Positions 20,354 to 51,156 of a stretch of 64,000 nt of DNA are shown piece after piece. How positions within the stretch are numbered: the stretch's first letter is position 1; each line of letters starts with the position of its first letter. This stretch comes from Acidimicrobiales bacterium (GTDB lineage: Bacteria; Actinomycetota; Acidimicrobiia; Acidimicrobiales; VFJN01). Where the stretch lies: positions 23,941 to 87,940 of the forward strand of contig JBBDWQ010000038.1 in the NCBI GenBank assembly GCA_040902805.1, written 5' to 3'. Position numbers and translations under genes: made by a program. The notes under the pieces were generated by a model, which was not told the origin of the DNA, did not search any database, and saw only the letters and a list, made by a program, of their open reading frames with translations.

Positions 20354-21079
20354 ATGCCTGCTGACGAGCCTGGCGCGCCACTACAGGTCACCGTGGTGCT
20401 TCCCGCCCACAACGAGGAGGACATCCTCGCCAACACTGTTGCCGAGATCATGGCCGGCCTTCGCGCTCGCGGTGCCGCGTTCGAGGTGGTGATCGTCGAA
20501 AATGGGTCCAGAGACGCCACCCTTCGGGTCGCACAGGACCTGGCCGCATTGCATCCTGAGCTGGTGGTGCTGACGAGCTCGACCGCCGACTACGGGGAGG
20601 CGTTGCGCCGAGGTTTGCAGGCCGCCCGCGGTGACGTCGTCGTGAACTTCGACGTCGACTACTACGACCTCGGGTTCTTCGATGACGCCGTCGCGATGGT
20701 TCGCGCCGGGAAGGCGGGCATCGTGGTGGGCACCAAGCGCGGCCTGGGCGCGCAGGACGATCGTCCGTGGCCACGCCGCGTCGTGACGGGTGGGTTCAGC
20801 TGGATCCTTCGCTTCGGATTCGGACTGCAGGCGTCAGACACGCACGGCATGAAGGCGCTTGACCGGCACCGGCTGGCACCTCTGGCCGACCGATGTCAGC
20901 TCGGCGCGGATCTCTTCGACACCGAGCTCGTGCTACGTGCGGAACGGGAGGGCATCGTCGTCGCCGAGCTCCCGGTGCAGGTCATCGAGCTTCGCCCCGC
21001 CCGCTCCCCCATCGCTCGGCGCGTCATCCGAACCGTCGTCGGGCTCCGGCGACTCCATCGCGCTCTCCGGAACCCGTAA
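20354..21079 (+). CDS. Glycosyltransferase family 2, polyprenyl-phosphate sugar synthase-like (soluble type)
   Basis: LQVTVVLPAHNEEDIL...VIVENGSRD...NFDVDYYD. 241 aa with no C-terminal TM segments. The acceptor is not identifiable from sequence. Confidence 0.75.
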   Translation: MPADEPGAPLQVTVVLPAHNEEDILANTVAEIMAGLRARGAAFEVVIVENGSRDATLRVAQDLAALHPELVVLTSSTADYGEALRRGLQAARGDVVVNFDVDYYDLGFFDDAVAMVRAGKAGIVVGTKRGLGAQDDRPWPRRVVTGGFSWILRFGFGLQASDTHGMKALDRHRLAPLADRCQLGADLFDTELVLRAEREGIVVAELPVQVIELRPARSPIARRVIRTVVGLRRLHRALRNP

Positions 21080-23392
21080 GCGCCTCGGGAAGTGGACCGG
21101 GCCGCGGCGGGCGAGCAGGCCAAGCGCCAGCAGAGCCGCCAAGGTGGTGCCCCAGCCGAGGTACTCCACGGAGGTCTCGCCGTAAGAGAGCTCCACGTGG
21201 CGCTCGGTCGGGATGACAACCATCAAGTTGGGTGTTACGCGATACGGCCCGTCCGCGCCCTTCACTGACCAGTTGGGGAAGTACGACACCTTCACGAGCA
21301 TGGGCTGGCCCACCCGGTCGACGTCGAAGCTCAGCGACTGGTCCTGAGGATCGATGTTCGATACGCGAGTGGACGGAAGCGCACGCCGCTCGGGTTGTTC
21401 GCCTGCCTCGATGCGCTGCCAACCGAGCGGGCCGTTGGAAGCGAGGACAACATCGAGTGACGCGGCGTCGTTGTACCAAGCCACCGCGTCCCGTTGCCAG
21501 GCGGGGTTCTCGTTGCGCATGCCCTGCAGTACTGCCGGTTCGTTGGCGAGCGGCTCGACCAGCTCGCTTCCCGACACCTCGTAGACCGTCCACGGAGCAG
21601 AGCTGGCGACCTCGCGCAGGTCTGGGTGGGCAGCAGCCGCCAGCGTGGCCTCGGGGGAGAAGGCCATGTAGTAACGCACGCCCATCAGCTGCAGATGTTG
21701 CACGCCGGCGGTGAGGTCGAGTCCGCTGTAGTGCATGGGGCGCTCAGGGGTGTCGCGGACCGGGTTCGATGGCGCCGCAGAGAGCTCAGCGGCGTTGAGG
21801 AAGTGAAATGGCGTCGTGGCCGACGACTCGAAGTACAGACCCTCCATCGAGGCGATGCAGCCGCTAGTCCAGAACGGAAGCAGCATCAGCGCCATCGGCG
21901 TGCCGTACCTGTTGAGGTCGGACTCGTACTCCCAATGGGCTCGACCGCAGCCCTCGGTCTCGCCCACCCGCTGCATCGTCGACACAATCCCGCGGTACTC
22001 CGGGTAGGCATCCTTGCGCTCATACCCCGAGTAGTTCCACGCTGCCCAGCTGTCCACAAAGCTGTCATCGTTCGTCTCGAGCGGGCCCCATCGGTAGGTG
22101 CTGCCGTCAAGGTGCCCGAAAGGCAGGACGTGGAGAGGCAGCGCCACGGTGACGATCGCCGCGCTCGCAACCAAGACGGTTCCTGCTCCCCGCACCGTTC
22201 GCTGCACGACCTCCCCGCCCGATCCGATGAGCAGGGCTATCGATCGGATCACCTCGGAGACGCCGATCGCGGCCAGCAGGTACAACGCGAGGTAGTAGAA
22301 GGGCAGCAACCGCGCGTTCCAGATGTGAACAGCTCCCGCAGCGTCCCCCCAGAACCCGACGGCGGCGAGCACGCCGACGATGGCGACAAAGATGCCCACG
22401 CGGACGCGCAAGGCAAACGACATCACGACACCGACCAGCGCAAGTGCGAACACCCAGCGCGTCGCGTCGGGGAGGAGCCCTTCTTTCAGCCCGTCGAGTC
22501 GCTCCCAGCCCATGTCGGTGAGCAGACCGCGCCGAAGCACGAAGGGCACCGACCAGAACGCGGTGAGCAGGCAGCCGAGCGCCAGGATTGGTGCCGCAAA
22601 GCGTACGCGGGCCCAGTTGGCGCGGAGAGCGACCATCACCACTGCTCCCACGACTGCGAAGAAGGCAGGGATGGCGTGACACAGGATGACCAGCGCGAGC
22701 AGAAGTGTGGCTTTGCCGCGGTGATGGCCGGAGTCGAGGGCTCTCGACAGCACGCCGAAGAACAGCAGCGCCAGGGACAAGCTGATCGAGAAGCTGTACT
22801 CGCCGGCCAGCGTGGAGGCGAGATTGCCGCCGTAGATCGTCCAGCTTCGGTCGAACAGGAACAAGGTGAGCGCCACGGCAAGGAGGGCCGGACCAGGCGG
22901 CGGTAGCCGAAACAGGCGGCCCATCACGTATGCGCAGATCGGCATCGCCACTACGCCCAGAACGGTGACGAGCTTCAGCGCGATGCCATAGGGGAGCACG
23001 AGGTCGAGCAGCACCACGAGCAGCGCAGGGGGCAGCATGTAGAACTGGAACGCCGGGAAGCCGGCGTACCAATCGGGGGTCCATCCCGTCAGCCGGAAGT
23101 GCGGCAACAGGCTGTCCCGAAGGTAGGCGGGCCCCCACACGTGTGCGCCCATGTCGCCGCCAGCGGGCGTCGTGCGCGCCAGGATCAGGTCTGGGTGCAG
23201 CTGCAAGAGGACGAACACCGAGCAGCCGACTGCTATCGCCGCTCCGCCCCACGACTCCACGGGCGCGCTCGCCGCCGCGTTCTGCCACCGCCGGAGCAAG
23301 CTGCGCTTTGGCGCTACGTGAGCAGGGGCCGCCGTGGGGGGCTCGGCCAGCGGCTGTTCTGTGATCGAGGACACGACACTCGATCTTTCCAT
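20933..23392 (-). CDS. Large polytopic membrane protein, GT-C/YfhO-like architecture (uncharacterised)
   Basis: C-terminal 820 aa of ORF 20933-24235; ATG 23390-23392 (MERSSVVSS). The first loop has TTPAGGDMGAHVWGPAYL...WTPDWYAGFPAFQFYMLPP. Many TM segments are followed by a ~350-aa non-hydrophobic domain ending SYFPNWSVKGADGPYRVTPNLMVVIPTERHVELSYGETSVEY plus a final TM. Confidence 0.7.
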   Translation of the reverse strand: MERSSVVSSITEQPLAEPPTAAPAHVAPKRSLLRRWQNAAASAPVESWGGAAIAVGCSVFVLLQLHPDLILARTTPAGGDMGAHVWGPAYLRDSLLPHFRLTGWTPDWYAGFPAFQFYMLPPALLVVLLDLVLPYGIALKLVTVLGVVAMPICAYVMGRLFRLPPPGPALLAVALTLFLFDRSWTIYGGNLASTLAGEYSFSISLSLALLFFGVLSRALDSGHHRGKATLLLALVILCHAIPAFFAVVGAVVMVALRANWARVRFAAPILALGCLLTAFWSVPFVLRRGLLTDMGWERLDGLKEGLLPDATRWVFALALVGVVMSFALRVRVGIFVAIVGVLAAVGFWGDAAGAVHIWNARLLPFYYLALYLLAAIGVSEVIRSIALLIGSGGEVVQRTVRGAGTVLVASAAIVTVALPLHVLPFGHLDGSTYRWGPLETNDDSFVDSWAAWNYSGYERKDAYPEYRGIVSTMQRVGETEGCGRAHWEYESDLNRYGTPMALMLLPFWTSGCIASMEGLYFESSATTPFHFLNAAELSAAPSNPVRDTPERPMHYSGLDLTAGVQHLQLMGVRYYMAFSPEATLAAAAHPDLREVASSAPWTVYEVSGSELVEPLANEPAVLQGMRNENPAWQRDAVAWYNDAASLDVVLASNGPLGWQRIEAGEQPERRALPSTRVSNIDPQDQSLSFDVDRVGQPMLVKVSYFPNWSVKGADGPYRVTPNLMVVIPTERHVELSYGETSVEYLGWGTTLAALLALGLLARRGPVHFPRRLRVPESAMESPEPDDGSDDAPSDGGAGGAKLDDLHRELGDDDALPFRT

Positions 23393-23412
23393 CCGGGGCG
23401 CGTCAGGTTGGG

Positions 23413-24153
23413 TCACCCGAGCAACAGGAGGCTGACGACGGTGACCATGTTGAACGTCACGTGGGCGGCGATGGCCGGTCCCAGCCGTCCGGCACGGTGA
23501 GCCAGCACCCCAGCGACGGCACCGAACAGGACCAGCGCCGGCAGCTGCAGCAGCTCGAAGTGGCTGGCGCCGAACACCAACGACGTAACTGCGATGGCGG
23601 CGGCCGGGTGGAGCCCGCGCTTCAGGAGTGCCCCTTGCAGCAGGCCGCGGTAGAAGATCTCCTCCACGACCGGCGCGCCGACCCCCACGATCAAGACCAG
23701 CAAGATGACGCCAATGGCACCGTCGGCCCGGTCGGTCATGGCACGCGCGGGGCCTTCGAGGTCCGAGGTGTCCTTCTGCAGCAGCCGGAGCAACGGCCAG
23801 TAGAGCAACGGCAGGGCGACCAGCTGCAGCAACGCACCAATCAGGCCACCGCGCCAGAGGTCGGCTCCCCGCGCGCGGAGCTGCAGATCTCGCACAAGGC
23901 CGTTGCCCTTCAGCCGCGTTGCGACGACGGGCACACCCAGCAGTCCAACCCAAAGCCCGAGCTGAGCAAGGGCCACGAGGGACAGCGGCAAGTCGTCGAT
24001 CTGATCGACGGAGCGGTCGGTCGCGGCCAGGATCGTGGCGAGCGCCAGCTGAGACCCGGTCAGCCCGATCAAGAACCCGAGCACCGCGTCCCCAAACCCC
24101 CAACGGGTAGGCCGCGCAGTGCTGACAGCGGACGCGGAGGGGACCTCGATCAC
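23413..24153 (-). CDS. CPBP-family intramembrane glutamic endopeptidase (CAAX protease-like)
   Basis: Motifs EEIFYRGLL, FGASH and HVTFN in a polytopic protein. GTG start at 24151-24153. Confidence 0.85.
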   Translation of the reverse strand: MIEVPSASAVSTARPTRWGFGDAVLGFLIGLTGSQLALATILAATDRSVDQIDDLPLSLVALAQLGLWVGLLGVPVVATRLKGNGLVRDLQLRARGADLWRGGLIGALLQLVALPLLYWPLLRLLQKDTSDLEGPARAMTDRADGAIGVILLVLIVGVGAPVVEEIFYRGLLQGALLKRGLHPAAAIAVTSLVFGASHFELLQLPALVLFGAVAGVLAHRAGRLGPAIAAHVTFNMVTVVSLLLLG

Positions 24154-24179
24154 CCGGGCAGGCTATTGGTTGTCCGCCC

Positions 24180-24413
24180 TCAGGACGCCAGCGCGTGCGA
24201 CAACGCGGCCGGGTAACGCACGCGTCGATCGGCAAGCGCCCAGCCCTGCGGCACCTTGAGGCCGTCGGCGTGCTCCGTGCAGAGGTCGTAGGCCATGGGA
24301 TGGGCCTCGCTGTCGAGGAGCTCGACCCAGGCGGTACGAGCCGAGTAGTCGTAGGTCAGCGTGGCGCTGGCACTGGCATTGCAACTGGGCTTGGCGCACG
24401 TGCGGCTGCTCAT
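24180..24413 (-). CDS. DUF3499-like small Cys/His protein
   Basis: ORF 24180-24446. MSSRTCAKPSCNASASATLTYDYSARTAWVELL...YDLCTEHAD matches my memory of actinobacterial DUF3499. The ATG 24411-24413 start is preferred; GTG 24446 and ATG 24437 are alternatives. Confidence 0.7.
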   Translation of the reverse strand: MSSRTCAKPSCNASASATLTYDYSARTAWVELLDSEAHPMAYDLCTEHADGLKVPQGWALADRRVRYPAALSHALAS

Positions 24414-26541: not shown

Positions 26542-27006
26542 TCAGTGGCAGGCGTCGGGCGTGCTGCCTGGCTCCCGAGCCTCCGCGACCGCCGCCCACA
26601 GATCGGTCGCGGTCACTGGACCCACCCAGCTCGCCATCACCACCCCATCGGGATCGATCACCAGCGACGTCGGCACGGCGTCTATGCCGTAGCGGTCGTG
26701 CACACCACGAGCGGTGGAGTACTCGATCTCCACCACCGCCACCTGGGCGCTCTCCAGCGGCCGGGCTCGCTCCCACACCCCCGCGCACACCGTGCAGGTC
26801 GCCGACGTGAACACGGCGACCAACCACGGCACTTCGGGGCTCTCGAAGTCGGCGCGATCGACCTGTAGCGGGACGGCGTAGGTCCGTCCCGCGGGGGCGT
26901 CCGGGCGCTGGCGTCGCTGGATGACAGCGGCGACGCCAACGGCGACGAGCGCGAGCACCACGGCGACAACGACCCGTTCCACGCACAGAGCATGCCGCTC
27001 CTGCAT
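26542..27006 (-). CDS. Membrane-anchored thioredoxin-fold protein (CxxC = CTVC)
   Basis: ORF 26542-27075. ATG 27004-27006 (MQERHALCVERVVVAVVLALVAV) gives an N-terminal TM. WLVAVFTSATCTVCAGVW is thioredoxin-like. Confidence 0.6.
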   Translation of the reverse strand: MQERHALCVERVVVAVVLALVAVGVAAVIQRRQRPDAPAGRTYAVPLQVDRADFESPEVPWLVAVFTSATCTVCAGVWERARPLESAQVAVVEIEYSTARGVHDRYGIDAVPTSLVIDPDGVVMASWVGPVTATDLWAAVAEAREPGSTPDACH

Positions 27007-27073
27007 CAGGCCCGGCCACCCGCCGCACCCCCGATGGGGAGGAGCTCGCACGCGTCGTGCAGAATGTCCGGCC

Positions 27074-28495
27074 ATGCGACGCGGACGCCTGCCCCGGATC
27101 TTTCAGGAGCCCATGTGGGTGCTCGGCCTCGTCCTCTTCATGGACGAGGTCGACAAGAACGTCGTCCGAGGGTTGATCACGCCACTCAAGGCCGAGTTTG
27201 GCGTCGGCGACCTCGGCATCGGCGTTCTCCTGTCGCTTGCGCTCCTCTTCAACGGTCTCATCACCGTTCCGGCGGGCTACCTCGCCGATCGGTGGAACCG
27301 TTCTCGGGCCATTGGCCAGACCGTGATCGGCTGGTCGGTGCTGAGCGCCGGTGGCGCCGCGTCGGTCGGGTTCCCGATGCTCGTCGGCATGCGATCGGCG
27401 CTCGGCTTCGGCCAGGCGATCACCGAACCCTCGGCGGCGAGTCTCATCGGCGACTACTACCCGCCCGATCAGCGCGGGAAGGCCTTCTCGGTGCAGCAAG
27501 TGATGCTGCTGGCCGGCACTGGCTTTGGCGTTGGGCTGGGTGGCTTCATCGGCACCAACTGGGGCTGGCGGCCGGCCCTCATCGTCGTCGCCATCCCCGG
27601 CCTACTCGTGTCGTGGCTCGTCTTCCAGCTGCGCGAGCCTCGGCGCGGCACCGCCGACATGATGGCGGCCATCGGTGCGGGCTCTATCGAGCATGCCGAA
27701 GACGGCGAACACCCCGCGCTCTTCGAGAACGGTTTCCGTCAATTCCTTCGCGACATGATCGCCGGTCTGCGCGAGGACATGCGGGTGATCCTCGACATCC
27801 GGACGATGCGCTACGCGCTCGCCGGGGTGGCCGCCCTGCTGTTCACCGTCACCGCCCTGGCGGCGTGGCTCCCCCAGTACTTCGAGCGTCACCTGCACAT
27901 GGCCGAAGGCACTGGGGAAGCGCTCTTCTTCGCCCTCATCATCTTCGGAGGCATCCCGGGCGTGCTGATGGGCGGCCGAGTTGCCGACCGGTACGCACAG
28001 AAGATCCAGGGCGGTCGACTGGCCCTCCCGGCCATCTTCATCGCGGTCGGCAACGTGCTCTTCACCGGCGCCTACATGCTGCGCAGCGACACCTACTCGC
28101 GGTCGCTCGTCACCGTGGTGTTCCTGCTGCAGCTCGTTGGCATCTTCGTGATGACCATGGCCATCCCCGGCTTGCGCGCCGGGCTGACCGACGCCATCCC
28201 CGCGCACCTGCGTGGTGCGGGGTTCGGCGCCTTCAACCTGGTCGCTGTCGTGTGCGGGCAGGCTGCCGCGCCGTTCATCGTCTCGCTGATCTCCAACCAG
28301 TTCGACGAGAACCTCCGCGTGGCGTTCCTGGCCTGCTCCCCGCTGCTGTTCCTCGGTGCGGCCATCTTGTTCCGGGCCCGGAAGTACCTCGACGAGGACA
28401 TGAACAAGATCATGATGGCGGTGTTGCAGGCGCTCCAGGATGAGCAGACCCGTGCCCAGGAGAAGGCCGCTGAGCACGGAGCCGACCCCGCCTGA
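27074..28495 (+). CDS. MFS transporter
   Basis: Part of ORF 26921-28495; ATG 27074. MFS motif-A-like GYLADRWNRSRA and about 12 hydrophobic segments. Confidence 0.85.
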   Translation: MRRGRLPRIFQEPMWVLGLVLFMDEVDKNVVRGLITPLKAEFGVGDLGIGVLLSLALLFNGLITVPAGYLADRWNRSRAIGQTVIGWSVLSAGGAASVGFPMLVGMRSALGFGQAITEPSAASLIGDYYPPDQRGKAFSVQQVMLLAGTGFGVGLGGFIGTNWGWRPALIVVAIPGLLVSWLVFQLREPRRGTADMMAAIGAGSIEHAEDGEHPALFENGFRQFLRDMIAGLREDMRVILDIRTMRYALAGVAALLFTVTALAAWLPQYFERHLHMAEGTGEALFFALIIFGGIPGVLMGGRVADRYAQKIQGGRLALPAIFIAVGNVLFTGAYMLRSDTYSRSLVTVVFLLQLVGIFVMTMAIPGLRAGLTDAIPAHLRGAGFGAFNLVAVVCGQAAAPFIVSLISNQFDENLRVAFLACSPLLFLGAAILFRARKYLDEDMNKIMMAVLQALQDEQTRAQEKAAEHGADPA

Positions 28496-28616: not shown

Positions 28617-30206
28617 TCAGTCGTTGACGGGATCAGGGACGAAGATGTCGCGGTCGAGGGGGATGCCCATGGCTTGCGACATGCCGCCCCCACCAATTCG
28701 ATAGAGGCCGCGCTCGGCGACGATCGGACCGTCGGCCACGACAACGACGGGGAGCACGTCTCGAGCGATGTGGTCGCCTAGTCGAATGACGGCCCGGCCA
28801 CCCGGCTCGATCGACCGGCCCTGCAGGTCTTGGATGGCGATCGTCTGCCCGCCGGCAAGGCCCGTCACGCTGTAGGTCACCGCGTTCTCGTTGTCGAGGT
28901 TCACCAGAACGAGGAACTCGTCGCGACTCTCTGTCGGCCCGCCACCGGCGAAGTACCAGATCGGCGCCCCCACGGGTGATCCGGTGGTGACGGTGATCCC
29001 ACGCCGCGGGGCGGGTGACGCTGACGAGTTCACGCGCTCGGCCGCGATGGGGACGTCGTTCAGGGATCGCACGAACAGAGCGTGGCCGACGCCTTCGGGT
29101 ACCCGGTCCTCCGCGTGGACGTCGACGATCGAATAGCGACCGGGCGGGATCGTCAGCTCGAACGGCTCGGGAAGTGTGTTCGTGTCCGGATCGTCGAGGC
29201 GCACCTCGACCTCTACCTCGGCTACGTCGTCGCTCGGGTTGAAGACCACGACCTGCTCGGTGAGACCAGGTCCGGTCTCACCGACCGGGAACACCCATTC
29301 GAGGGCTGGCTCCGGCACACCGAGCGCGAGCGTGATCCCCTCGCGCCCGTCGGTGCCGTCGAGCGTCTGGATCCGGTCCACCACGACACGACCGCTGCGG
29401 ACGCGCACGTTGGCGGAAACCTGAGCCTTGCGCGTGACATCCCGCTCCAAGGAGGCCCCCACGACGCTGCGGCCTGGGACGATGAAGCCCTGGTAGCGAG
29501 CCGTGTCGCGAACACCTTCGTCCGTGGCAAAGGAGATGTCGACTGTCGCGTCGTCCGGGAACGGGTTCATGAACACCAGGAGATCGCGAGCCCCGCGCGT
29601 CGTGACTCCCCATGGGAAGGACCACGTTGTGGACGCCGTGGTGCTGCAGGGGGCCGTCGCCCGACCGAGCGGACCGGTGACGTGGTGCTCGACCGCGATC
29701 TCACCGCCGTCGACCTCGACGATCGCGCCCACGAGCGATGCCACGGCCAGATCGCCGAGTCGGGCCTCGACGCGACTCTGGGCCGGCAGTGGCCAAGAGC
29801 TCTCAATGGGCTTGTACGGGAGCGTTGTGGTGGTCGGCGCCGGAGTGGTGGTGGGCGCGGTGGGCGCGGTGGCCGTCGTGGCGGTTGAATCGGTGGAAAC
29901 GGGTGGCGGCGAGTCCGCCACGGATCCCGTCAGCACGGTGATCGTGGCGGTGCGGGCACGGTCGGTCGGGTTGGCGAGCACCAGCACATGGTCGGCAAAG
30001 CCACCGCGTCGACCGGTTCCTCCCGCGCAGTACCACGTGGATGACAGCGTGGGCTCGTCCCGAGCGGCAGGAATCGCGACGCCCGCCTGCACCACCGGAG
30101 CGGCCGAGGTCGGCGAGGCGGTATCCCGCTCGGCGACCTGGATGACCAACCCAGCCGCCATGAGGCCGACGATGAGTAGCAGCGACGTGACCCGGGCCGA
30201 CTTCAC
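28617..30206 (-). CDS. DUF5719-like exported protein with four internal repeats (uncharacterised)
   Basis: C-terminal 529 aa of ORF 28617-30425. GTG 30204-30206 overlaps the upstream TGA (GTGA), with GGAGGAG upstream. It has an N-terminal TM and then four modules starting STWYCAGG, TTWSFPWG, LEWVFPVG and PIWYFAGG. Confidence 0.75.
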   Translation of the reverse strand: MKSARVTSLLLIVGLMAAGLVIQVAERDTASPTSAAPVVQAGVAIPAARDEPTLSSTWYCAGGTGRRGGFADHVLVLANPTDRARTATITVLTGSVADSPPPVSTDSTATTATAPTAPTTTPAPTTTTLPYKPIESSWPLPAQSRVEARLGDLAVASLVGAIVEVDGGEIAVEHHVTGPLGRATAPCSTTASTTWSFPWGVTTRGARDLLVFMNPFPDDATVDISFATDEGVRDTARYQGFIVPGRSVVGASLERDVTRKAQVSANVRVRSGRVVVDRIQTLDGTDGREGITLALGVPEPALEWVFPVGETGPGLTEQVVVFNPSDDVAEVEVEVRLDDPDTNTLPEPFELTIPPGRYSIVDVHAEDRVPEGVGHALFVRSLNDVPIAAERVNSSASPAPRRGITVTTGSPVGAPIWYFAGGGPTESRDEFLVLVNLDNENAVTYSVTGLAGGQTIAIQDLQGRSIEPGGRAVIRLGDHIARDVLPVVVVADGPIVAERGLYRIGGGGMSQAMGIPLDRDIFVPDPVND

Positions 30207-33200
30207 GACGTCTCCTCCGCAGCGCGCGCCGGGTTCAGCCGCGACCGCAACAAGCGCCGCCCGACCCAGAGCCAGGCGAGCACCTGCAGGAGCAGCAGCC
30301 CGTACCTGACGGGCGAGGTGGCGTAGCGAAGCGTTGCGTCGCCGGCACTCGTGACATCGAAGCCATTGGCCCACCCGTACGGCTTGGTGTGCGCCATCGA
30401 GCGCCCGTCCACCGAAAGCGTCCACCGATCAGAATGGGCCGCAGCCCAGAGCAGCGTCTTGTCAGGTTGTACGGGTCCCGACCAGCGAAACGTGCCTGCG
30501 TCCTTCGGAAGAAGTGCACCGAGGCCTGACAGGTCGACGCCGGCCGCGGCCACCACACCGGCGGCTGCCGGCGGGGCCTTGGCCGTGGTGATCTGTGCTC
30601 GCATCGGATAGAAGGCTTGGTTTCGGAAGACGAGCACCCCAGCCGGGAGGTCCAACGGTTCCAGATCCAGCTGGCCGTCAAGCGTGTCGGCGAGCGCTTC
30701 GGGGATCGGGAGGGCGTCGCTCGCAAACGGAGCCGGAGCCAGGCGTTCCGGCACCACGATGTAACGGACTCCCATCGGGGCCAGCAACCGACCGAGCCGG
30801 GCCGTCTGTCCAGTCCGGGCCAGATCGATCACATCAGCCAGGAGCCCGGTGACGCCATCATCAGACCCGACCCACAGGTCCTCGAGTCGGGGCGTGCCGT
30901 GGTCGGTGGTCGAGTAGGCGACGCCGTCGGTGAGCTCCCAGCTTCCCAACGGCAGCGCGGCGGGATCGCCGAGCCACAGGATCCTGAACGGCACGGTCTC
31001 GTTGTCGAGGTCGATGAAGCTGAGCGCGCGCTGATGATCGCCCCCTGGCATCGACCACCGTCCGTCGAAGGCGGCGCCGAGCACCGGGATCGTGGCCAGT
31101 GCTACGGCCACGGCGGCAACTCCCGAGGCAATCTGTCGCCACCCGAACCGGTAGCCGGGGAGGTCCACCTCGAAGGCAGCCACACCCATGGCGGTGGCGA
31201 GGGCCAACCCGACCGCACTGGGGGCGAGCAGCACCTCGGGCGCCGGAAGCGAAGACGGTGCCCACCCGCTCTGCGAGATCCAGGCCAGCGCCCAGAACAC
31301 GAGAGCAAGCACCCAGCCCCGGACCGCCCAGGCATGTCGCTCGGCCCGTGCGATCAGCAATGGCAGCGCGGCCGCGATGAGCAACGCCCATCCAAGCGGC
31401 GCCACCCCCATCGGACCGACCTGGAACCGAAGCAGCGCCCCGAGGTCAGAAGAGTGCGAGCCACGGTCAACCCCCACGATCGCCGACCACGGCGTTCCGG
31501 GGAGGAGCAGGTCGGCACTCCAGGGCAGGTGGAGGGCTATGGCCAGGACCGCGCCGCCGAATGCCACGGCGACCATTCGACTCGTCCCGAAGACGCGGTA
31601 GGTGAACAGCGATCCGAGCCCGAGGGCCAGAGCCAGACCCGGAAGGATGAGCACTGCGGCCGGGATGAGGGTGGCGAGCAGGGCCGTGGTCGCGCCGAGT
31701 GCGAGCACGGGGGTACGCAGGGAAGGGCGCGGCGCGGCGCGATCGTCGGTTGTCACGGGGGTGAACGGCGGGATGCCCCCGGCCCGGGCCAGCATGCCGA
31801 TGAGCGCTGGGACTCCGGCGTAGAGCGCCAGCGCACCCCATCGCCCGTTGGCAAGCGCGTTGTACGGCAGTGGGTTGCACACGTACACGACAAGCGCCGC
31901 GATCTGTGCATGGCGCGAACCGACCGGAGCCGCCAGTCGATAGATCGTCAACGCACCAAGGGGTAGCAGCCCGAGTGTGAGCACGGTGCGGAGGAGCCCC
32001 ATCGAACCGAAGCTGAGGATGCCCAGGAAGCCACCGAGCCCGTAGGCGGTGGGCGCAGGGGCCTCCGAGCCCAGGCCCGCGGATCGCCAACCGCTGACCC
32101 ATGCTCGCAAGAGCTCGATCGATGAGGATCGAAACGGGACGAGCTCCCCTACCGCCGGCACACCACGGGTGATGAGATGCCGGCTCCCCGCGAGGAGCAC
32201 GAACGCAATGACGGACCACACGATGGCCGTGTTTCGCAGTGAGCCCGTACGAAGGGCTCCCGCGACGTCACGTCCGCTGCGGGCCCACCCCGTCAGCCGG
32301 TCCTCGCCTCCGCCGATCTGTCCCCGCGCGAACTGCCTGAACCGGGCGCTCCCGCCGACCATGAACCGACGGATCTCCCGATCGGGAACGACTCGGAACT
32401 CGTCAACCTGACGGCGCGCTTCACGCAGCTCACCCGGGTTCCGCAGATTCCACGTCCAGGCGGCCGCCGTATCCCGGGCCTGTGCGGTGCGCCCGACCAC
32501 CAGCGAATAGAGGATCTCCACCACATGAAGGGCGACCATCTTCGGGACGATGCGGACAAGCCCAACCGCGGAGTAGCAGCTCAGCACAACTCGCAATCGG
32601 TGCCGAGCTTGGAGACGACGACGATCGTCCACCGGTCGGCGTATCGATAGCGCCTCTAGGTGCCGCACCCGCGCCGACGGAGCCACGATGACGCGCGCGC
32701 CGGCGAGGTGCACGCGCCAGCAGAGGCTGATGTCATCGAGGAGGTAGTCGATCCCCTCGTCGAACCCCCCCACTGCGGCGAACAGATCCGCCCGCACCAA
32801 GGTGCACGCGCCGGGGATCGCGAACACGTCGCGCACGCCGTCGTGCTGCTCCTGGTCAAGCTCTCCTCGCTCGACCAGCGGGGCGACGTAGCCCGCGTGA
32901 TCGATGCCCACGCCCACATCGAGCAGATGGCGTGGATCGTCCCAGGACACCAGCTTGGGACCGACGACCGCCGCGTTGGACCGGAATGCCTCCTCGACGA
33001 GGAGTCGGACGACATCGGGATCCAGTGCGACATCGTCGTGGCAGAAGAGGTAGAACGCTGCACCTTCGACGACCTCGAGCACCTCGTTGGCGGCCGCCCC
33101 GAACCCTGGGTTCTCGTCGAGGCGACGCACGAACGCGCTGGGGGCGACCGCCGCGACGCGTGCTCGCACCTCCACCGCACTCGCCGTGTCGATCACCAGG

Positions 33201-33376
33201 ACGGACAGGCTCGGGTAGTCCTGAGCCGTGAGCGAGGCGATGGTGGCCTCAAACCACTCCCCTGGGTCGTGCGCCACCACGACCGCCACCACAGCGGGCG
33301 CCACCAGCTGCGCCACCTCAGGCGCGTCGTCGAGCGCGTCGTCGGGCGCGTCCACGCCTGGGGTGAGGTCCTCCAC
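30203..33376 (-). CDS. Fusion protein: N-terminal GT2 glycosyltransferase + large polytopic membrane domain + extracytoplasmic domain + terminal TM
   Basis: ORF 30203-33469. GT2 part: VVAVVVAHDPGEW...LSVLVIDTAS...NPGFGAAANE...FCHDDV...GACTLVRADLF...DDISLCWR. It is followed by many TM segments and ends with WTLSVDGRS...ATLRYATSPVRYGLLLLQVLAWLWVGRR. The start is ambiguous: GTG 33376 (VEDLTPG) or GTG 33469. Confidence 0.8.
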   Translation of the reverse strand: MEDLTPGVDAPDDALDDAPEVAQLVAPAVVAVVVAHDPGEWFEATIASLTAQDYPSLSVLVIDTASAVEVRARVAAVAPSAFVRRLDENPGFGAAANEVLEVVEGAAFYLFCHDDVALDPDVVRLLVEEAFRSNAAVVGPKLVSWDDPRHLLDVGVGIDHAGYVAPLVERGELDQEQHDGVRDVFAIPGACTLVRADLFAAVGGFDEGIDYLLDDISLCWRVHLAGARVIVAPSARVRHLEALSIRRPVDDRRRLQARHRLRVVLSCYSAVGLVRIVPKMVALHVVEILYSLVVGRTAQARDTAAAWTWNLRNPGELREARRQVDEFRVVPDREIRRFMVGGSARFRQFARGQIGGGEDRLTGWARSGRDVAGALRTGSLRNTAIVWSVIAFVLLAGSRHLITRGVPAVGELVPFRSSSIELLRAWVSGWRSAGLGSEAPAPTAYGLGGFLGILSFGSMGLLRTVLTLGLLPLGALTIYRLAAPVGSRHAQIAALVVYVCNPLPYNALANGRWGALALYAGVPALIGMLARAGGIPPFTPVTTDDRAAPRPSLRTPVLALGATTALLATLIPAAVLILPGLALALGLGSLFTYRVFGTSRMVAVAFGGAVLAIALHLPWSADLLLPGTPWSAIVGVDRGSHSSDLGALLRFQVGPMGVAPLGWALLIAAALPLLIARAERHAWAVRGWVLALVFWALAWISQSGWAPSSLPAPEVLLAPSAVGLALATAMGVAAFEVDLPGYRFGWRQIASGVAAVAVALATIPVLGAAFDGRWSMPGGDHQRALSFIDLDNETVPFRILWLGDPAALPLGSWELTDGVAYSTTDHGTPRLEDLWVGSDDGVTGLLADVIDLARTGQTARLGRLLAPMGVRYIVVPERLAPAPFASDALPIPEALADTLDGQLDLEPLDLPAGVLVFRNQAFYPMRAQITTAKAPPAAAGVVAAAGVDLSGLGALLPKDAGTFRWSGPVQPDKTLLWAAAHSDRWTLSVDGRSMAHTKPYGWANGFDVTSAGDATLRYATSPVRYGLLLLQVLAWLWVGRRLLRSRLNPARAAEETS

Positions 33377-33452
33377 GGTCGTCCGAGGGTAGCCGCCGTT
33401 CCACGGGCCTCTGCGGCACCAATCACCGCTCCCCACGCCCCGCGCACCACCC

Positions 33453-33490
33453 CTTGCGAAGTAGTGCACAACCGCTTGCGATAGTTCGCA
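33453..33490. promoter_or_regulatory. Repeat cluster: CTTGCGA x2 (33453, 33475) plus inverted TGCGAA/TTCGCA (33455-60 / 33485-90)
   Basis: Seen in the relatively AT-rich divergent region between the GT2-fusion gene and the small gene at 33511. The direct repeats are 22 bp apart. Function is inferred only. Confidence 0.2.
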
Positions 33491-33510: not shown

Positions 33511-33744
33511 ATGGCCCACACTCCCGTCGAGGACCTCGCAGAGATCGTCAAGGATGCCGCCTACGTGTCCGTGGGCCTCGGGCTCATTGCCTTCCAGCGC
33601 ATCCAGGTGCGACGAAACGACCTTGCCAAGGCCATGAGCACCCCCGTCGAAGAGACCAAGGGCACCCTCGATCTCATCGGCGCTCTCGTGGGCGAGCGAG
33701 TAAAGCTCGTCGAAGAGCGCGTCAGCTCCGTCATTCGTCGCTGA
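33511..33744 (+). CDS. Small helical hypothetical protein (77 aa)
   Basis: Part of ORF 33454-33744; ATG 33511 (MAHTPVEDLAEIVKDAAYVSVGLGLIAF...). No obvious SD and no family recognised. Confidence 0.45.
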   Translation: MAHTPVEDLAEIVKDAAYVSVGLGLIAFQRIQVRRNDLAKAMSTPVEETKGTLDLIGALVGERVKLVEERVSSVIRR

Positions 33745-33800: not shown

Positions 33801-34925
33801 GTGCCCGCTCCTCTGCGCGTCGCGCTCGACGCCACCTCTCTCTACGACACACGAAGTGGCGTCGGCCGGTTCACCGAGGAGGTGCTCCACGGCGTCGGCG
33901 TCGACAATTCCATCGATGCGATCGCCTACGCCGTGACGTTTCGGGGCGCGGGCCATCTAGCTGACCTGCTACCGCCCGGTGTGCGTCCCGCGCGCCGCCG
34001 CCGCATGGCCGCCCTGCCCCTCCGTCAGGCTTGGGCCCGATCGGATCACCCCAGCATCGAGCGCTGGACGGGCGCCATCGACGTCGTGCACGGAACCAAC
34101 TTCGTGGTCCCTCCCACCCGGGCGGCGGCGGTGGTCACGATCCACGATCTGACCTATGTCCACTTCCCGCAGATGTGCACGGCAGACGTGCTCCAGTACC
34201 CCGAGCTCGTAAGGCGGGCGCTGCATCGAGGCGCTGTCGTCCACACCGTCTCTGAGTTCGTCCGTGACGAGGTGATCGACCACTACCACCTGCCTGCAGA
34301 TCGTGTCGTTGCGGTACCCAACGGCATCACCGCCACTGCTCCGGGAGACCCTGCCAGCGGCAGCCGACTCGCCGGCGGGGACCGATACCTGATCGCCGTC
34401 GGCACGGTGGAGCCCCGCAAGGACTACCCGGGCCTCGTGCAGGCTTTCGACCAGATGGCAGCCACCGACGCCGACCTTCGCCTGGTGATCGCCGGGTCCG
34501 ATGGGTGGGGAGCCGACGCCCTCACAGCTGCCATCGACGCCGCGCACCACAAGACCCGGATCGTTCGACTCGGCTGGATTGACGACCCGGCACGAGCCGA
34601 CCTGCTCGCGGGCGCCGAGGCGCTCGTCCTCGCATCTCGCTATGAGGGCTTCGGGCTCACTGCAGGCGAAGCGATGGCCGCCGGGGTGCCCGTCGTGGCG
34701 ACTGCCGTGGGTGCCATACCGGAAGTGGTCGGCGACGCGGCCGTCCTGGTGCCGGTGGCGGACGTCGACGCCCTCGCTGAGGCGCTCTCCCTCCTCGTCG
34801 CCGACGACATCCGCCGCTCGCAGCTCATCGAAGCCGGGCGTGAGCGAAGTGCCATGTTCACGTGGTCGCGCACCGTCGAAGGACTCGTGGCCCTGTGGCG
34901 CTCGGTGGTGGACGCGGCCCGGTAG
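33801..34925 (+). CDS. Glycosyltransferase family 4 (GT-B, Glycos_transf_1)
   Basis: 374 aa. RVALDATSL N-terminus and the E-x7-E region YEGFGLTAGEAMAAGVPVV. Confidence 0.85.
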   Translation: MPAPLRVALDATSLYDTRSGVGRFTEEVLHGVGVDNSIDAIAYAVTFRGAGHLADLLPPGVRPARRRRMAALPLRQAWARSDHPSIERWTGAIDVVHGTNFVVPPTRAAAVVTIHDLTYVHFPQMCTADVLQYPELVRRALHRGAVVHTVSEFVRDEVIDHYHLPADRVVAVPNGITATAPGDPASGSRLAGGDRYLIAVGTVEPRKDYPGLVQAFDQMAATDADLRLVIAGSDGWGADALTAAIDAAHHKTRIVRLGWIDDPARADLLAGAEALVLASRYEGFGLTAGEAMAAGVPVVATAVGAIPEVVGDAAVLVPVADVDALAEALSLLVADDIRRSQLIEAGRERSAMFTWSRTVEGLVALWRSVVDAAR

Positions 34926-34942
34926 GCCGTAGTGTCCGCTCG

Positions 34943-37780
<2,838 letters not shown>

Positions 37781-37784
<4 letters not shown>

Positions 37785-38479
37785 CCCTCACGATCAGCCC
37801 CATCGAAGGCATCCCGGAGATCCGGGCGGGTGACGACTTGGCGGGGCTCATCGCGGTCGCCAAGCCCGACCTCGCGGACGGTGACGTCCTCGTCGTCACG
37901 CAGAAGGTCGTCTCGAAGGCCGAGAACGCCATGGCGCGCATCGACCCCGACGACCCGAACGGCCACAAGACGATCGTCGAGGATCAGTCGGTTCGCATCG
38001 TCCGGCGGCGGGGCGACCTGATCATCAGTGAGACCCGCCACGGGTTCGTGTGTGCGAACGCGGGTGTCGACCTCTCCAATGTGGATGAGGGCTGGGCCGC
38101 ACTCCTACCGGTGGACAGCGACCGGTCGGCGCGACGGATACGCGACGGAATCCGCGGCACGCTCGGCGTCGAGGTTGCCGTCATCGTTTCCGATACGTTC
38201 GGCCGACCGTGGCGGCGAGGCCTCACGGACGTCGCGATCGGGTGCGCGGGCATCAAGGCAGTGGTGGATCTCCGGGGCACCGAGGACAGCCGAGGTCGCG
38301 TGCTGCAAGTCACCGAGGTGTGCGTGGTCGACGAGCTAGCGGCGGCAGCCGAGCTCGTGATGGGGAAGGCAACAAACGTTGCTGCGGCAGTCGTGCGTGG
38401 TGTCGATCCCCAGTGGCTCGGACGCGGCAACGTACGGTCCGAGATCATCCGACCACCTCAGGAGGACTTGTTCCGGTGA
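37781..38479 (+). CDS. cofE: Coenzyme F420:L-glutamate ligase CofE (single-domain, no nitroreductase-like C-terminal domain)
   Basis: Part of ORF 37709-38479. ATG 37781 overlaps the cofD stop (ATGA). MTLTISPIEGIPEIRAGDDLAGLI...VVTQKVVSKAEN...CANAGVDLSN...VSDTFGRPWRRG. 232 aa. Confidence 0.85.
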
Positions 38480-39183
38480 CACCTCCCGAACCCACTCGGT
38501 GCCTCACGGTCGTGATGCCGTGCTTCAACGAGCAGGCAACGGTCGAGGCGATCGTCCGCGCTGTACTCGCTTCGCCATGGGTCGGCGAGCTGGTCATCGT
38601 GGATGATGGCTCGACCGACGATACGCCGGAGATCCTGGCCAGCATCAGCGATCCACGAGCGAAGGTGCTCCTTCAGGACACAAACCAGGGCAAGGGGGCA
38701 GCCCTTCGCCGCGGCTTCGCCGAAGCATCAATGCCCTTCACCATCGTGCAGGACGCCGACCTCGAGTATGACCCGGGGGAGTATGCCCGGCTGATCGAGC
38801 CGCTCATCGACGAACGGGCCGATGTGGTCTTCGGCAGCCGGTTCATGGGAGCTGACGCCCACCGTGTCCTCTTCTTCTGGCATTCGTTGGGAAATCGGCT
38901 CTTGACGCTCCTCTCCAACGCCGTGACGGATCTGAACCTGACCGACATGGAGACCTGCTACAAGGCGTTCCGCACAGAGGTCCTCCAGTCGATCGAGCTG
39001 AAGGAGGACAGGTTCGGCTTCGAACCCGAGATCACCGCCAAGATCGCCCGCCGCCGTCTGCGAGTGTTCGAAGTGGGCATCTCGTACAGCGGCCGTACCT
39101 ACGATGAGGGGAAGAAGATCGGTTGGCGCGACGGGGTTCGCGCGCTCTGGTGCATTGCCAAGTACGGGCTCCTTGGCCGCTGA
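38476..39183 (+). CDS. Glycosyltransferase family 2 (polyprenyl-phosphate sugar synthase-like, soluble)
   Basis: Part of ORF 38209-39183. GTG 38476 overlaps the cofE stop (GTGA), with GGAGGA at 38461-66. VVMPCFNEQATV...IVDDGSTDDT...VQDADLEYDPGEY...FGSRF. Confidence 0.85.
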   Translation: MTPPEPTRCLTVVMPCFNEQATVEAIVRAVLASPWVGELVIVDDGSTDDTPEILASISDPRAKVLLQDTNQGKGAALRRGFAEASMPFTIVQDADLEYDPGEYARLIEPLIDERADVVFGSRFMGADAHRVLFFWHSLGNRLLTLLSNAVTDLNLTDMETCYKAFRTEVLQSIELKEDRFGFEPEITAKIARRRLRVFEVGISYSGRTYDEGKKIGWRDGVRALWCIAKYGLLGR

Positions 39184-48776: not shown

Positions 48777-49631
48777 TTACCGGTGGTCCAGGTCCTGCAG
48801 AAGTCTCTCGAGGGACTCGCGATAGTGCGGAAGAAGTGGGACACCGCCCAGTCGCAGCGCCGCGTTGTCGAGCACGGAGTTGGACGGCCGTGGCGCGGGG
48901 CGTGGCGGATCAAGGTCTGCCGTGGCGATCGGGCGGACCTTGTCGGGATCGTGGCCGGCCAGCGCGAGGATGTCCCGCACGAACCCGTACCAGGTGGTCT
49001 CCCCTTGATTGGTGACGTGGTGGACGCCGGCCCGTCGCTCGACGGCAAGCCGTCGGATCATCGGCGCCACATCGAAGGTGAAGCTCGGGCAGCCTCGCTG
49101 GTCATCCACAAAGGCCAGGCCCGGGTGGTCGAGCAGGCCGAGCACCGTCTTCACGATGTTTTGCCCGTGCTCGCCGCACAACCAGGCCGTTCGAACGATG
49201 GCCGAACCGGGCGCGTGCACGGCAACCGCCTGCTCCCCTGCCCACTTCGAACGTCCGTAGACCGATTGCGGGTTCGGACGGTCCCACTCGGCGTAGGCCG
49301 AATCCTTGGTGCCGTCGAAGACGTAGTCGGTGGACACCGCGACGAGGTGGGCGCCGATTCGTCGCGACGCATCGGCCACCCACTCCGTCGCCATGGCATT
49401 GGTGAGGAAGGCGCGCTCCGCGTCGGCTTCGCAAGCATCCACCGCCGTCCAGGCACCGGCGTGAAGGACGGTGTCCGGAGCCGTGCCCAAGATGGCTTGG
49501 TACACCGCATCGCGATTCGTGAGGTCGAACTGGGCTCGATCGCACGCGATGACGTCGTCGCCAGCGATCTCACATGCTCGCACCAGATCGCTTCCGAGCT
49601 GGCCACTCGCGCCCGTGATGAAGACCCGCAT
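48777..49631 (-). CDS. rmlD: dTDP-4-dehydrorhamnose reductase
   Basis: Part of ORF 48777-49682; ATG 49629-49631 (MRVFITGASGQLGSDL). STDYVFDG and YGRSKWAGE. Confidence 0.9.
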   Translation of the reverse strand: MRVFITGASGQLGSDLVRACEIAGDDVIACDRAQFDLTNRDAVYQAILGTAPDTVLHAGAWTAVDACEADAERAFLTNAMATEWVADASRRIGAHLVAVSTDYVFDGTKDSAYAEWDRPNPQSVYGRSKWAGEQAVAVHAPGSAIVRTAWLCGEHGQNIVKTVLGLLDHPGLAFVDDQRGCPSFTFDVAPMIRRLAVERRAGVHHVTNQGETTWYGFVRDILALAGHDPDKVRPIATADLDPPRPAPRPSNSVLDNAALRLGGVPLLPHYRESLERLLQDLDHR

Positions 49632-50590: not shown

Positions 50591-51156
50591 CGATCGTCGC
50601 TCCTGGGCGCGAACATCGGTGCATCTCGGTCCTTGAGCGAGATCTGCGCGCGGTCCTCGTCGTCGATGGCGAGTGGCCACTGGATGCCCAGACCTGGATC
50701 TAGCGGGCTGCACGCCCGTCCCCCCATGCCGGGCTGCCACTCCTTGTCGAACACGTACAGATACTGCGTCACTCCCGGTGCGACGGCCTGGAACCCGTTG
50801 GCGACGCCCCGGGGAACGAAGACCTGAACGCCAGGAACGAGCTCCGCCGTCTCGACCCCCCCATGGGTCGGCGACTCGGGGCGCATGTCCAAGTAGACGC
50901 CAAAAGCAGCTCCGGCCACCACCGCGACGAGCTTGTTCATGTCCTCAGCGTGGAGTCCCCGGACTGCGCCTCGCTTCGACTCGGTGACGTTGACCTGGAC
51001 CCATGGGCCCAGGGGCAACCCTGCGACGTCGAAGGCCGACGCTCGATAGACCTCGCGCACAGCGCCGCGCTCGTCGGCCGCTTGCTTCATCGTGAGGTGC
51101 AACAGACCGTCGATCGATCCCGGATGTACCTCGAACTCAACGAATGCCGAGGACAT
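50587..51156 (-). CDS. rmlC: dTDP-4-dehydrorhamnose 3,5-epimerase
   Basis: 189 aa cupin with RGAVRGLH...VFVPRGVANGFQ. Its stop overlaps the rmlB start (ATGA). Confidence 0.88.
   Translation of the reverse strand: MSSAFVEFEVHPGSIDGLLHLTMKQAADERGAVREVYRASAFDVAGLPLGPWVQVNVTESKRGAVRGLHAEDMNKLVAVVAGAAFGVYLDMRPESPTHGGVETAELVPGVQVFVPRGVANGFQAVAPGVTQYLYVFDKEWQPGMGGRACSPLDPGLGIQWPLAIDDEDRAQISLKDRDAPMFAPRSDDR

Follow-up and report, generated by a model that had tools for sequence, protein, structure and literature searches.

A GT2 glycosyltransferase fused to a GT-C-fold membrane module in a conserved cell-wall glycan locus of Acidimicrobiia

We analyzed a 64,000-nucleotide stretch of the genome of an Acidimicrobiales bacterium (assembly GCA_040902805.1, contig JBBDWQ010000038.1, positions 23,941 to 87,940; hereafter the window), in which one minus-strand gene encodes a single polypeptide that joins a cytoplasmic glycosyltransferase family 2 (GT2) domain to a large polytopic module with a GT-C fold. 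Pfam matches, Foldseek comparisons and sequence conservation agree that this is a genuine fusion, as an original prediction made from the sequence alone had proposed. Because both halves belong to known superfamilies, the novelty is confined to the combination of these two known types of enzyme, and no new class of machine is involved. We propose, with a probability of roughly 0.42, that it acts as a two-sided bifunctional glycosyltransferase of one cell-wall glycopolymer. The prediction had stated that no functional study of this architecture was known; our full-text literature searches likewise turned up none on a GT2/GT-C fusion, or on DUF5719, the family of the adjacent gene.

Architecture of the fusion protein

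The fusion gene is enclosed by a mechanical minus-strand open reading frame (ORF) at 30203-33469, and its GTG start agrees with the NCBI gene call for a protein from a metagenome-assembled genome (MAG), 'glycosyltransferase family 2 protein [Acidimicrobiales bacterium]' (P0001), which has the same 1057 residues at 100% identity and coverage. The G+C content of the window is 64-70%. Every motif quoted in the original prediction (VVVAHDPGEW, NPGFGAAANE, CHDDV, GACTLVRADLF and DDISLCWR) is found in the translation, as is the ending it described, WTLSVDGRS...ATLRYATSPVRY followed by a hydrophobic helix and RR. Pfam GT2 models cover residues 27-258, and the remaining ~800 residues had no Pfam match. 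The order of segments was correctly foreseen, but two lengths were not: the membrane region spans ~400 residues (373-771) instead of ~450, and the non-hydrophobic domain that follows spans ~250 (772-1021) instead of ~300. The features are collected in Table 1.

Table 1. Features of the fusion gene and its neighbors. Coordinates are positions in the window, residue numbers refer to the fusion protein, and conservation is given for 101 diverse family members.
Feature	Coordinates	Strand	Basis or remark
GT2 to GT-C fusion gene	30203..33376	(-)	1057 aa, GTG start at 33376, TGA stop; translation
GT2 (GT-A) catalytic domain, residues 27-258, cytoplasmic	32603..33298	(-)	Pfam above cutoff and Foldseek
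DxD-type motif H113-D114-D115 (in CHDDV)	33032..33040	(-)	93-96% conserved
Family signature G171-E-L-D-Q-E-Q-H-D179	32840..32866	(-)	E172, D174, Q177 and D179 97-100% conserved
ED-type motif D214-D215, then LCWR (W220, R221)	32714..32737	(-)	Conservation
Basic linker with amphipathic/interface helices, residues 249-372	32261..32632	(-)	Model and charge; R321, R328 and D332 invariant (96-99%)
GT-C-fold membrane region, 11 predicted TM helices, residues 373-771	31064..32260	(-)	Module-only AF2 model, Foldseek
R399, outer end of TM1	32180..32182	(-)	101/101
First extracytoplasmic loop (EL1), residues 405-458, 54 aa	32003..32164	(-)	Short helices 419-427 and 443-454
Motif F-E-V-D-L-P-G-Y-R-F-G-W-R-Q, residues 735-748, predicted cytoplasmic TM10-TM11 turn	31133..31174	(-)	Conservation
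Extracytoplasmic mixed alpha/beta domain with beta-sandwich-like end, residues 772-1021	30314..31063	(-)	Secondary structure, conservation, charge
C-terminal TM helix, residues 1022-1047	30236..30313	(-)	Helix in model; W1035 90%, R1046 96% conserved
Basic cytoplasmic tail (stop codon included)	30203-30235	(-)	After last TM helix
DUF5719 gene, 529 aa, directly downstream of the fusion gene	28617..30206	(-)	PF18986 66.7 bits, cutoff 26.2
Small thioredoxin-like protein	26542..27075	(-)	Weak PF00085, E 8.6e-4, below cutoff; present in 56/80 loci
Divergent GT4, NDP-sugar epimerase/reductase and GDP-mannose 4,6-dehydratase genes	33801..36867	(+)	Pfam, NCBIfam

The membrane module adopts a GT-C fold

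The full-length AlphaFold2 (AF2) model had a mean predicted local distance difference test score (pLDDT) of 78.8, with values of 80-95 in the membrane part and low confidence in several loops of the GT2 core. A model of the module alone (residues 372-1057) reached a pLDDT of 86.1 and a predicted template modeling score (pTM) of 0.89. As modeled, residues 372-1057 have a GT-C fold. When the module-only model was compared with the PDB by Foldseek, the 20 best matches were all GT-C enzymes (E 7e-8 to 5e-2), in keeping with the GT-C-like character originally proposed. AftD (6w98) occupied ranks 1-3 (E 7e-8, query TM-score 0.44), and archaeal AglB (3wak; E 7.5e-5, query TM-score 0.38) and AftA (8if8; rank 7, E 1.7e-4, TM-score 0.40 for the query and 0.45 for the target) were among the others, together with several STT3 entries, ArnT, PglB, EmbB and Pmt4 (E up to 5e-2, query TM-scores 0.22-0.44). 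Foldseek probability was at least 0.98 in 19 of these 20 matches, with 0.54 for EmbB at rank 17. A transporter-type fold devoid of GT-C features, the outcome that would have spoken against the prediction, was not what we found: major facilitator superfamily (MFS) transporters and aquaporins appeared only from rank 21, with probabilities below 0.3. With the full-length model, AftD was again the top match, followed by GT2 structures.

Twelve transmembrane (TM) helices are predicted in total, consistent with a polytopic GT-C fold of 8-13 or more. In the AF2 model TM1 comprises residues 373-404, ten further helices lie within residues 459-771, and the large C-terminal domain is placed between TM11 and TM12. 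A first outside loop of 54 residues with two short helices is the usual GT-C arrangement. Across 101 diverse family members, the set used for all residue conservation below, predicted inside loops carry a net positive charge and outside loops a net negative one (-8.9 for the C-terminal domain). This bias supports a topology in which the N-terminus would lie inside and the large C-terminal domain outside. The linker, modeled as helices 249-267, 270-294, 297-312 and 314-327, is assigned to the cytoplasm because of its net positive charge.

By profile comparison, the module belongs to no described sequence-defined GT-C family. Residues 340-1057 matched no Pfam or NCBIfam family in 17 diverse members, which were scanned at permissive E-values here and in the subtype comparisons below (Pfam at E up to 10), and none of the 17 matched the YfhO family PF09586 at E up to 10. 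PDB sequence searches with phmmer and with a 17-sequence profile (E up to 10) returned GT2 matches only, none of them in the module. Homology to AftD or AftA was not detected by sequence, so that the likeness to them is one of fold. The description of the module as YfhO/GT-C-like was therefore right in part. The layout that characterizes YfhO, in which a large extracytoplasmic domain separates the last two TM helices (PMC5836110), is found here with residues 772-1021 as that domain, but sequence-level membership in PF09586 or in PF10131 (PTPS_related) is not.

The fusion is conserved

An artificial origin, an assembly-derived fusion of two genes by a frameshift, had been raised along with the prediction itself. 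Here it would mean that a sequencing or assembly frameshift in this MAG joined adjacent GT2 and membrane-protein genes. The source is indeed a metagenome-assembled genome, and a few representatives of ~700 residues, P0183 and P0189 among them, start close to the module. Of the short representatives that were examined, however, most have no initiator methionine and are thus read as contig-edge fragments. A word-indexed search with the full-length protein found 3,596 homologues of ~1,050 residues from many independent assemblies, complete genomes included; the 120 best share 57-100% identity, and nearly all have 1,000-1,120 residues. In an exhaustive HMMER search, residues 340-1057 alone matched 1,714 representative clusters (50% identity) at E up to 1e-3, 675 of which reach 1e-30. 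Among the 150 clusters listed, most representatives have 1,000-1,300 residues with a match beginning near residue 340, and 90 have at least 1,000. For 10 distant representatives, cluster look-up yielded solely the names of MAGs from Acidimicrobiia or Actinomycetota.

A scan of one genome per species gave at least 565 confirmed loci. The best 80 of these, to which all locus and neighborhood counts refer (neighbors by tblastn), are nearly all from Acidimicrobiia and include the complete genomes of Actinospongicola halichondriae and Aquihabitans daechungensis (L014, L022). In these 80 loci the match is single and continuous, ~3 kb each. The fusion junction itself is kept, with R321 conserved in 99%, R328 in 97% and D332 in 96% of members. 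Because more than 3,500 full-length homologues have the same architecture, the fusion is no assembly artefact; this conserved architecture rules out the frameshift explanation, whose probability we put at close to nil.

The fused GT2 domain resembles glycan-extending transferases

Three Pfam GT2 models scored above their gathering cutoffs (PF13641, 48.5 vs 27 bits; PF00535, 42.9 vs 23.3; PF13632, 29.5 vs 27), and a GT2 profile matched all 17 diverse members. In the Foldseek comparison of the full-length model, PcManGT (PDB 6yv7) was the top GT2 structural match, with ppGalNAc-T2, RmlT, TarS/TarP and K4CP also found. The domain has both a GT2 DxD motif and an acidic catalytic-base motif; in the latter, position 214 is D or E in 91 of 101 members, and D215, W220 and R221 are kept in 89, 98 and 99. 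The family signature at residues 171-179 lies in a loop modeled with low confidence (residues 168-189, pLDDT <50).

NCBIfam models matched among the 17 members were PgaC (15), MftF (14), EpsD (11), GlfT1 (8), rhamnosyltransferase (8), AglG (7) and PglI (2). The match to the GlfT1 model had an E-value of 3e-7, and the sequence profile found GlfT2 in the PDB at E 0.003. None of the 17 matched the PpgS, ArnC (PRK10714), AglJ or Dol-P-hexose models at E up to 0.01, whereas two stand-alone GT2 genes of the window, at 20354-21079 and 38209-39183, did so with E-values of 1e-8 to 1e-34. Neither DPMS nor GtrB was within the 50 best structural matches of the full-length model, and BcsA, hyaluronan synthase (HAS) and chitin synthases were not among the best. 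The QxxRW motif is absent; the corresponding stretch is R254-L-x-x-R258-H259-R260-L-R262, and W307-x-W309-N310 lies beyond it. We rejected a canonical processive synthase (BcsA, HAS or PgaC) for want of that motif, and a CsbB/GtrB-type GT2 because none of the 17 members matched the polyprenyl-phosphate sugar synthase models.

Given the subtype matches, the lack of polyprenyl-phosphate synthase matches and the missing QxxRW, the fused GT2 appears closest to a glycan-extending transferase (GlfT1, rhamnosyltransferase, PgaC or MftF-like). This is a lean and not a classification, since all subtype matches lie far below the family cutoffs. The original prediction had drawn an analogy to Firmicutes, in which a CsbB/GtrB-type GT2 and YfhO act on either side of the membrane. 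As the fused GT2 appears not to be of the CsbB/GtrB type, this analogy is weakened, and judging from the subtype scans any coupling between inside and outside probably does not work in the CsbB-to-YfhO way.

Conserved residues on the two faces of the module

Invariant residues of the module fall on both sides of the membrane. The outer-face set comprises R399, G772-R773-W774, R798, W801, G803, G862, Q902, D904, N919 and W985; within it R399, R798, W801, Q902, D904 and N919, all predicted outside, are 97-100% conserved. The cytoplasmic-face set comprises R480, R600, R680, R686, D738 and R747. Two of these residues belong to the motif at 735-748 (D738 97/101, G745 96/101, R747 95/101; pLDDT 56-75), whose side was assigned from helix count and loop charge. 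Classically, GT-C enzymes are recognized by an acidic residue in their first outside loop. Such a conserved acid or DXD-like motif was not found in EL1, where the candidate acid E411 occupies a variable position (E in 48, Q in 19, D in 10, T in 10 and G in 6 of 101 members). The invariant acids of the module are D738, in the predicted cytoplasmic turn, and D904, in the outside domain.

A two-sided glycosyltransferase as the preferred reading

In mycobacterial arabinogalactan synthesis, the cytoplasmic GT2 enzymes GlfT1/2 build the backbone and the GT-C enzymes AftA, AftD and Emb decorate it outside. Under the bifunctional reading proposed above, the fusion protein would unite GlfT and AftA/AftD roles in one chain, this being the nearest analogy. 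The GT2 domain would extend a polyprenyl-diphosphate-linked glycan from a nucleotide sugar at the cytoplasmic face, the role of GlfT- or WbbL-type enzymes, to which its resemblance is closest. Once this same polymer has been exported, the GT-C module would attach sugars to it at the outer face, with a polyprenyl-phosphate sugar as the donor, probably made by a separate DPM/PpgS-like GT2 of the locus (candidates 20354-21079 and 38209-39183). The candidate outer-face site consists of R399, G772-R773-W774, R798, W801, Q902, D904 and N919, the canonical first-loop acid not being among them, and the DUF5719 protein may help to hold or measure the acceptor polymer outside.

Several observations weigh against this reading. 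EL1 has no invariant Asp/Glu, position 411 being D or E in just 58% of members, and most invariant charges of the membrane helices are those predicted on the cytoplasmic face, which might instead indicate a function on that side. Against solved GT-C structures the module reaches only modest TM-scores (0.31-0.46; EmbB 0.22), and GT2 subtype scores are far under the family cutoffs (GlfT1 29.9 vs 330 bits; PgaC ~37 vs 422). The window shows no evident exporter that would move the presumed lipid-linked intermediate, and neither Wzx nor Wzm/Wzt was recognized there. The missing first-loop acid lowers the case for an active GT-C enzyme. It does not remove it, because AftD and YfhO also have no clear first-loop catalytic motif: the candidate catalytic residues of AftD are likewise not in that loop (bioRxiv 10.1101/2019.12.22.885152), and YfhO has no conserved DXD (PMC5836110).

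The idea put forward in the original prediction, a CsbB/GtrB plus YfhO/Gtr system in one chain, corresponds to a relay that supplies itself. The GT2 domain would charge polyprenyl phosphate inside, the product would be flipped, possibly by the module, and the fused GT-C part would use it outside. The fusion is obligate across the family, and it is consecutive steps that usually fuse; no separate flippase was seen near the gene. The best GT2 structural match, PcManGT, is membrane-embedded, and since 342 columns were aligned against its 346 residues, the match may reach its C-terminal helices. Residues that are invariant in the linker and on the cytoplasmic face (R321, R328, D332, R480, R600, R680, R686, D738 and R747) could bind the polyprenyl phosphate head group beside the GT2 site. 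Against these points stand the polyprenyl-phosphate synthase models, matched by the two stand-alone GT2 genes of the window and by none of the 17 fusion proteins scanned, the absence of DPMS and GtrB from the best structural matches, and the GExDQxQHD and DDxxLCWR signatures, which together with the weak subtype matches favor a glycan-elongating GT2. We regard such a relay as unlikely.

The module might also be no transferase at all, and serve as a membrane platform that presents a lipid-linked acceptor to the GT2 domain, perhaps translocating or handing over the product, with the outside domain and DUF5719 binding the wall or the polymer. The lack of an invariant first-loop acid, the gathering of conserved charges on the cytoplasmic face and the absence of a dedicated exporter gene from the glycan locus of the window fit such a role, as does the fact that the GT2 core repeatedly, if weakly, resembles the processive synthase PgaC (15/17) and MftF (14/17). 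However, QxxRW is missing, the processive synthases are not among the best structural matches, and every relative of the module with a solved structure is an active transferase. The module's most strictly conserved residues (R399, R798, W801, Q902, D904 and N919) lie outside, which suggests a functional outer site. We consider a platform without transferase activity doubtful.

A further reading makes the protein a self-contained trans-membrane machine. Here the GT2 domain would load or extend a polyprenyl-linked sugar, and the module would carry the intermediate across the membrane and transfer it outside with DUF5719, with no separate flippase or exporter; the putative binding site would be formed by the cytoplasmic-face residues R480, R600, R680, R686, D738 and R747. 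We hold this to be improbable. If true, it would give a GT-C-fold protein a role in translocation and would add a fourth pathway of glycan export to those that run through Wzx/Wzy, ABC transporters and synthases.

DUF5719 and the cell-wall glycan locus

The DUF5719 gene is translationally coupled to the fusion gene: its GTG start overlaps the TGA stop (GTGA), with GGAGGAG just upstream. The original prediction had suggested that the two co-occur, and DUF5719 is indeed immediately 3' of the fusion gene in 71 of the 80 loci. Most of the nine others have little or no downstream sequence; in L057 and L062 DUF5719 was not detected despite ~6 kb of downstream flank. An orthologous GT2-DUF5719 pair near whiB may also exist in Streptomyces and other Actinomycetes. 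The DUF5719 protein consists of a membrane anchor at its N-terminus, a linker rich in Thr and Pro and a beta-rich outside domain, and a PDB sequence search with it gave no match. The linker (residues ~85-125, e.g. TTATAPTAPTTTPAPTTTT) follows the anchor; Thr/Pro-rich segments of this kind are O-glycosylated in actinobacterial lipoproteins and secreted proteins. The DUF5719 protein contains two Cys residues (WYCAGG and APCSTT), and a conserved thioredoxin-like gene lies downstream, usually right after DUF5719 in related loci; from the sequences, the two together hint at an extracytoplasmic disulfide. In the window an MFS transporter gene at 26921-28495 (+) stands between the DUF5719 and thioredoxin-like genes. 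As this gene is found at that place in only 6 of 80 loci, it is probably outside the conserved unit.

On the other side of the fusion gene, GDP-mannose 4,6-dehydratase (GMD) and the epimerase are adjacent in 43 of 80 loci and GT4 in 37. The conserved order in Acidimicrobiia is CofE-CofD-GMD-epimerase-GT4, divergent from the GT2/GT-C fusion, DUF5719 and thioredoxin-like genes, with FtsH (on the opposite strand), a CAAX protease and a PF10131 membrane protein next. The rest of the window encodes phosphomannomutase, a bifunctional phosphoglucose/phosphomannose isomerase, a ManC-like enzyme, several GT4 enzymes and epimerases, UDP-glucose dehydrogenase, RmlA-D and a LytR-CpsA-Psr (LCP) ligase. The locus thus encodes cell-wall glycan synthesis, including GDP-6-deoxyhexose genes (GMD and reductase), and we take it to be the counterpart of the M. 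tuberculosis fbiAB-manB-wbbL1-rmlD-lcp1 region.

The complete dTDP-rhamnose set (RmlD, RmlB, RmlC and RmlA) lies at 48777-53998 (-) beside the LCP (LytR-CpsA-Psr plus LytR_C) ligase. No stand-alone WbbL-type rhamnosyltransferase was recognized in the window, and we speculate that the fused GT2 is the missing rhamnosyl- or galactofuranosyl (Galf)-type transferase. The GT2 gene at 38209-39183 (+) directly follows CofE and has AglJ, PpgS, Dol-P-hexose transferase and ArnC-like matches, making its product a candidate, by these matches, for the supplier of a lipid-linked sugar donor to GT-C proteins. As listed, its ORF overlaps CofE by ~270 nt and the Pfam match begins at residue 100, which makes a later true start probable. 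A 77-aa ORF at 33511-33744 (+) (MAHTPVEDLAEIVKDAAYVSVGLGLIAF...), with no Pfam match, lies between the divergently transcribed fusion and GT4 genes. Three loci (L033, L043 and L074) are on MAG contigs labelled 'Bifidobacterium sp.' or 'Gammaproteobacteria', with a fusion gene of 41-44% identity in a near-typical Acidimicrobiia neighborhood; they are probably mis-binned or mislabelled.

A second large membrane protein in the window

The original prediction had also likened the end of the fusion protein to that of a second large protein, at 20933-23392 (-). This is a polytopic protein of PF10131, a family that we take to belong to the GT-C clan. Its ending is as described, PNWSVKGADG...VELSYGETSVEY followed by a TM helix and RR, but the resemblance between the two ends is statistically marginal: hhalign of the C-terminal 96-residue profiles reproduced the suggested register with P = 0.039 and a probability of only 1.3%. 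Whole profiles of the module and the PF10131 protein gave a probability of 0.2%, and BLASTP of the module against that protein gave no match. The top hhalign alignment, which is not significant, pairs the two TM1/EL1 regions, setting the target's PAVGEL against GGDMGAH. No significant relation of the module to this protein and its family thus emerged from BLASTP or hhalign; the two have a common architecture, with homology not demonstrated.

The two proteins are alike in gross layout, in an ending of beta strands, terminal TM helix and RR, and in sharing the same conserved neighborhood in Acidimicrobiia. They differ in that the PF10131 protein has an invariant GGDMGAH (D80) right after TM1, where the fusion module has only the variable E411, and in that it carries no fused GT2; a small PpgS/GpgS-like GT2 gene converges on it instead. 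This gene, at 20354-21079 (+), encodes a small soluble protein with weak GpgS, PpgS, ArnC and Dol-P-hexose matches, and its 3' end overlaps the PF10131 gene by ~146 nt. Together they look like a classical pair of donor-synthase GT2 and separate GT-C protein. The mechanical ORF at 20933-24235 (-) (1100 aa) is over-extended, the PF10131 gene truly starting near 23392 (MERSS...). In another frame, 23413-24153 (-) encodes a separate CAAX/Rce1-like protease that adjoins the PF10131 gene in many Acidimicrobiia loci. AT skew is unusually high at 22001-24000 (+0.26) and 30001-32000 (+0.22), exactly over the two large minus-strand membrane-protein genes, and is probably an effect of the codon and amino-acid composition of Leu/Ala/Val-rich TM segments.

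Comparison with known systems

AftD and AftA, which are among the best structural matches of the module, come from Actinomycetota and have a wall polysaccharide as substrate, like the role proposed here. An Rml plus LCP locus type is presumably common to their genes (the M. tuberculosis Rv3261-Rv3267 region) and the fusion gene. In AftD, too, a TM bundle at the N-terminus precedes a periplasmic domain and then a C-terminal TM region, both ends are cytoplasmic, and the catalytic candidates lie outside the first loop. However, AftD totals 16 TM helices, and the C-terminal TM region that follows its periplasmic domain is a shorter one (bioRxiv 10.1101/2019.12.22.885152); the fusion protein has a single C-terminal TM helix there. 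No carbohydrate-binding modules were identified in the fusion protein, neither AftD nor AftA shows detectable sequence similarity to the module or has a fused GT2, and the window showed no genes for making decaprenyl-phospho-arabinose.

YfhO, which works with CsbB in a three-component system of Firmicutes, resembles the module in being polytopic, in its large outside domain between the last two TM helices, in having no conserved DXD and in its pairing with a GT2 enzyme. There the GT2 is separate, whereas here it is fused and appears not to be of the CsbB/GtrB type, and PF09586 does not match.

GlfT1/GlfT2 and WbbL-type GT2 enzymes have the same DxD and ED motifs and the same '...D-x-Q-x-D ... 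DDxxLCWR ... H' layout as the fused domain. The models for GlfT1, rhamnosyltransferase, EpsD and AglG match it weakly, and the presence of dTDP-rhamnose genes and an LCP ligase in the locus is a further likeness to glycan-elongating GT2 systems. In contrast to the fusion protein, GlfT/WbbL-type enzymes are soluble or peripheral, with no 700-aa membrane module, and the scores are far below cutoffs. BcsA, hyaluronan synthase, PgaC and PcManGT are built similarly to the fusion, in that interface helices and then TM helices come after a GT-A core, and the PgaC model from NCBIfam is matched by most members. The processive synthases differ in their QxxRW motif, and the TM part of the fusion protein has a GT-C fold, not that of a synthase channel.

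Implications

GT-A enzymes work inside and GT-C enzymes outside, normally as individual proteins whose sole connection is a lipid carrier that diffuses between them. The two are joined in almost all complete family members examined, and the gene lies in a conserved actinobacterial cell-wall locus, making the fusion family a natural system for coordination between the two faces of glycopolymer assembly. A fold is now assigned to a ~700-aa domain with no Pfam or NCBIfam model, and DUF5719 gains a concrete context. Because the cultivated species Actinospongicola halichondriae and Aquihabitans daechungensis carry the gene, experiments are possible. The fusion may show an early form of the division of labor in mycobacterial arabinogalactan synthesis, a drug target pathway.

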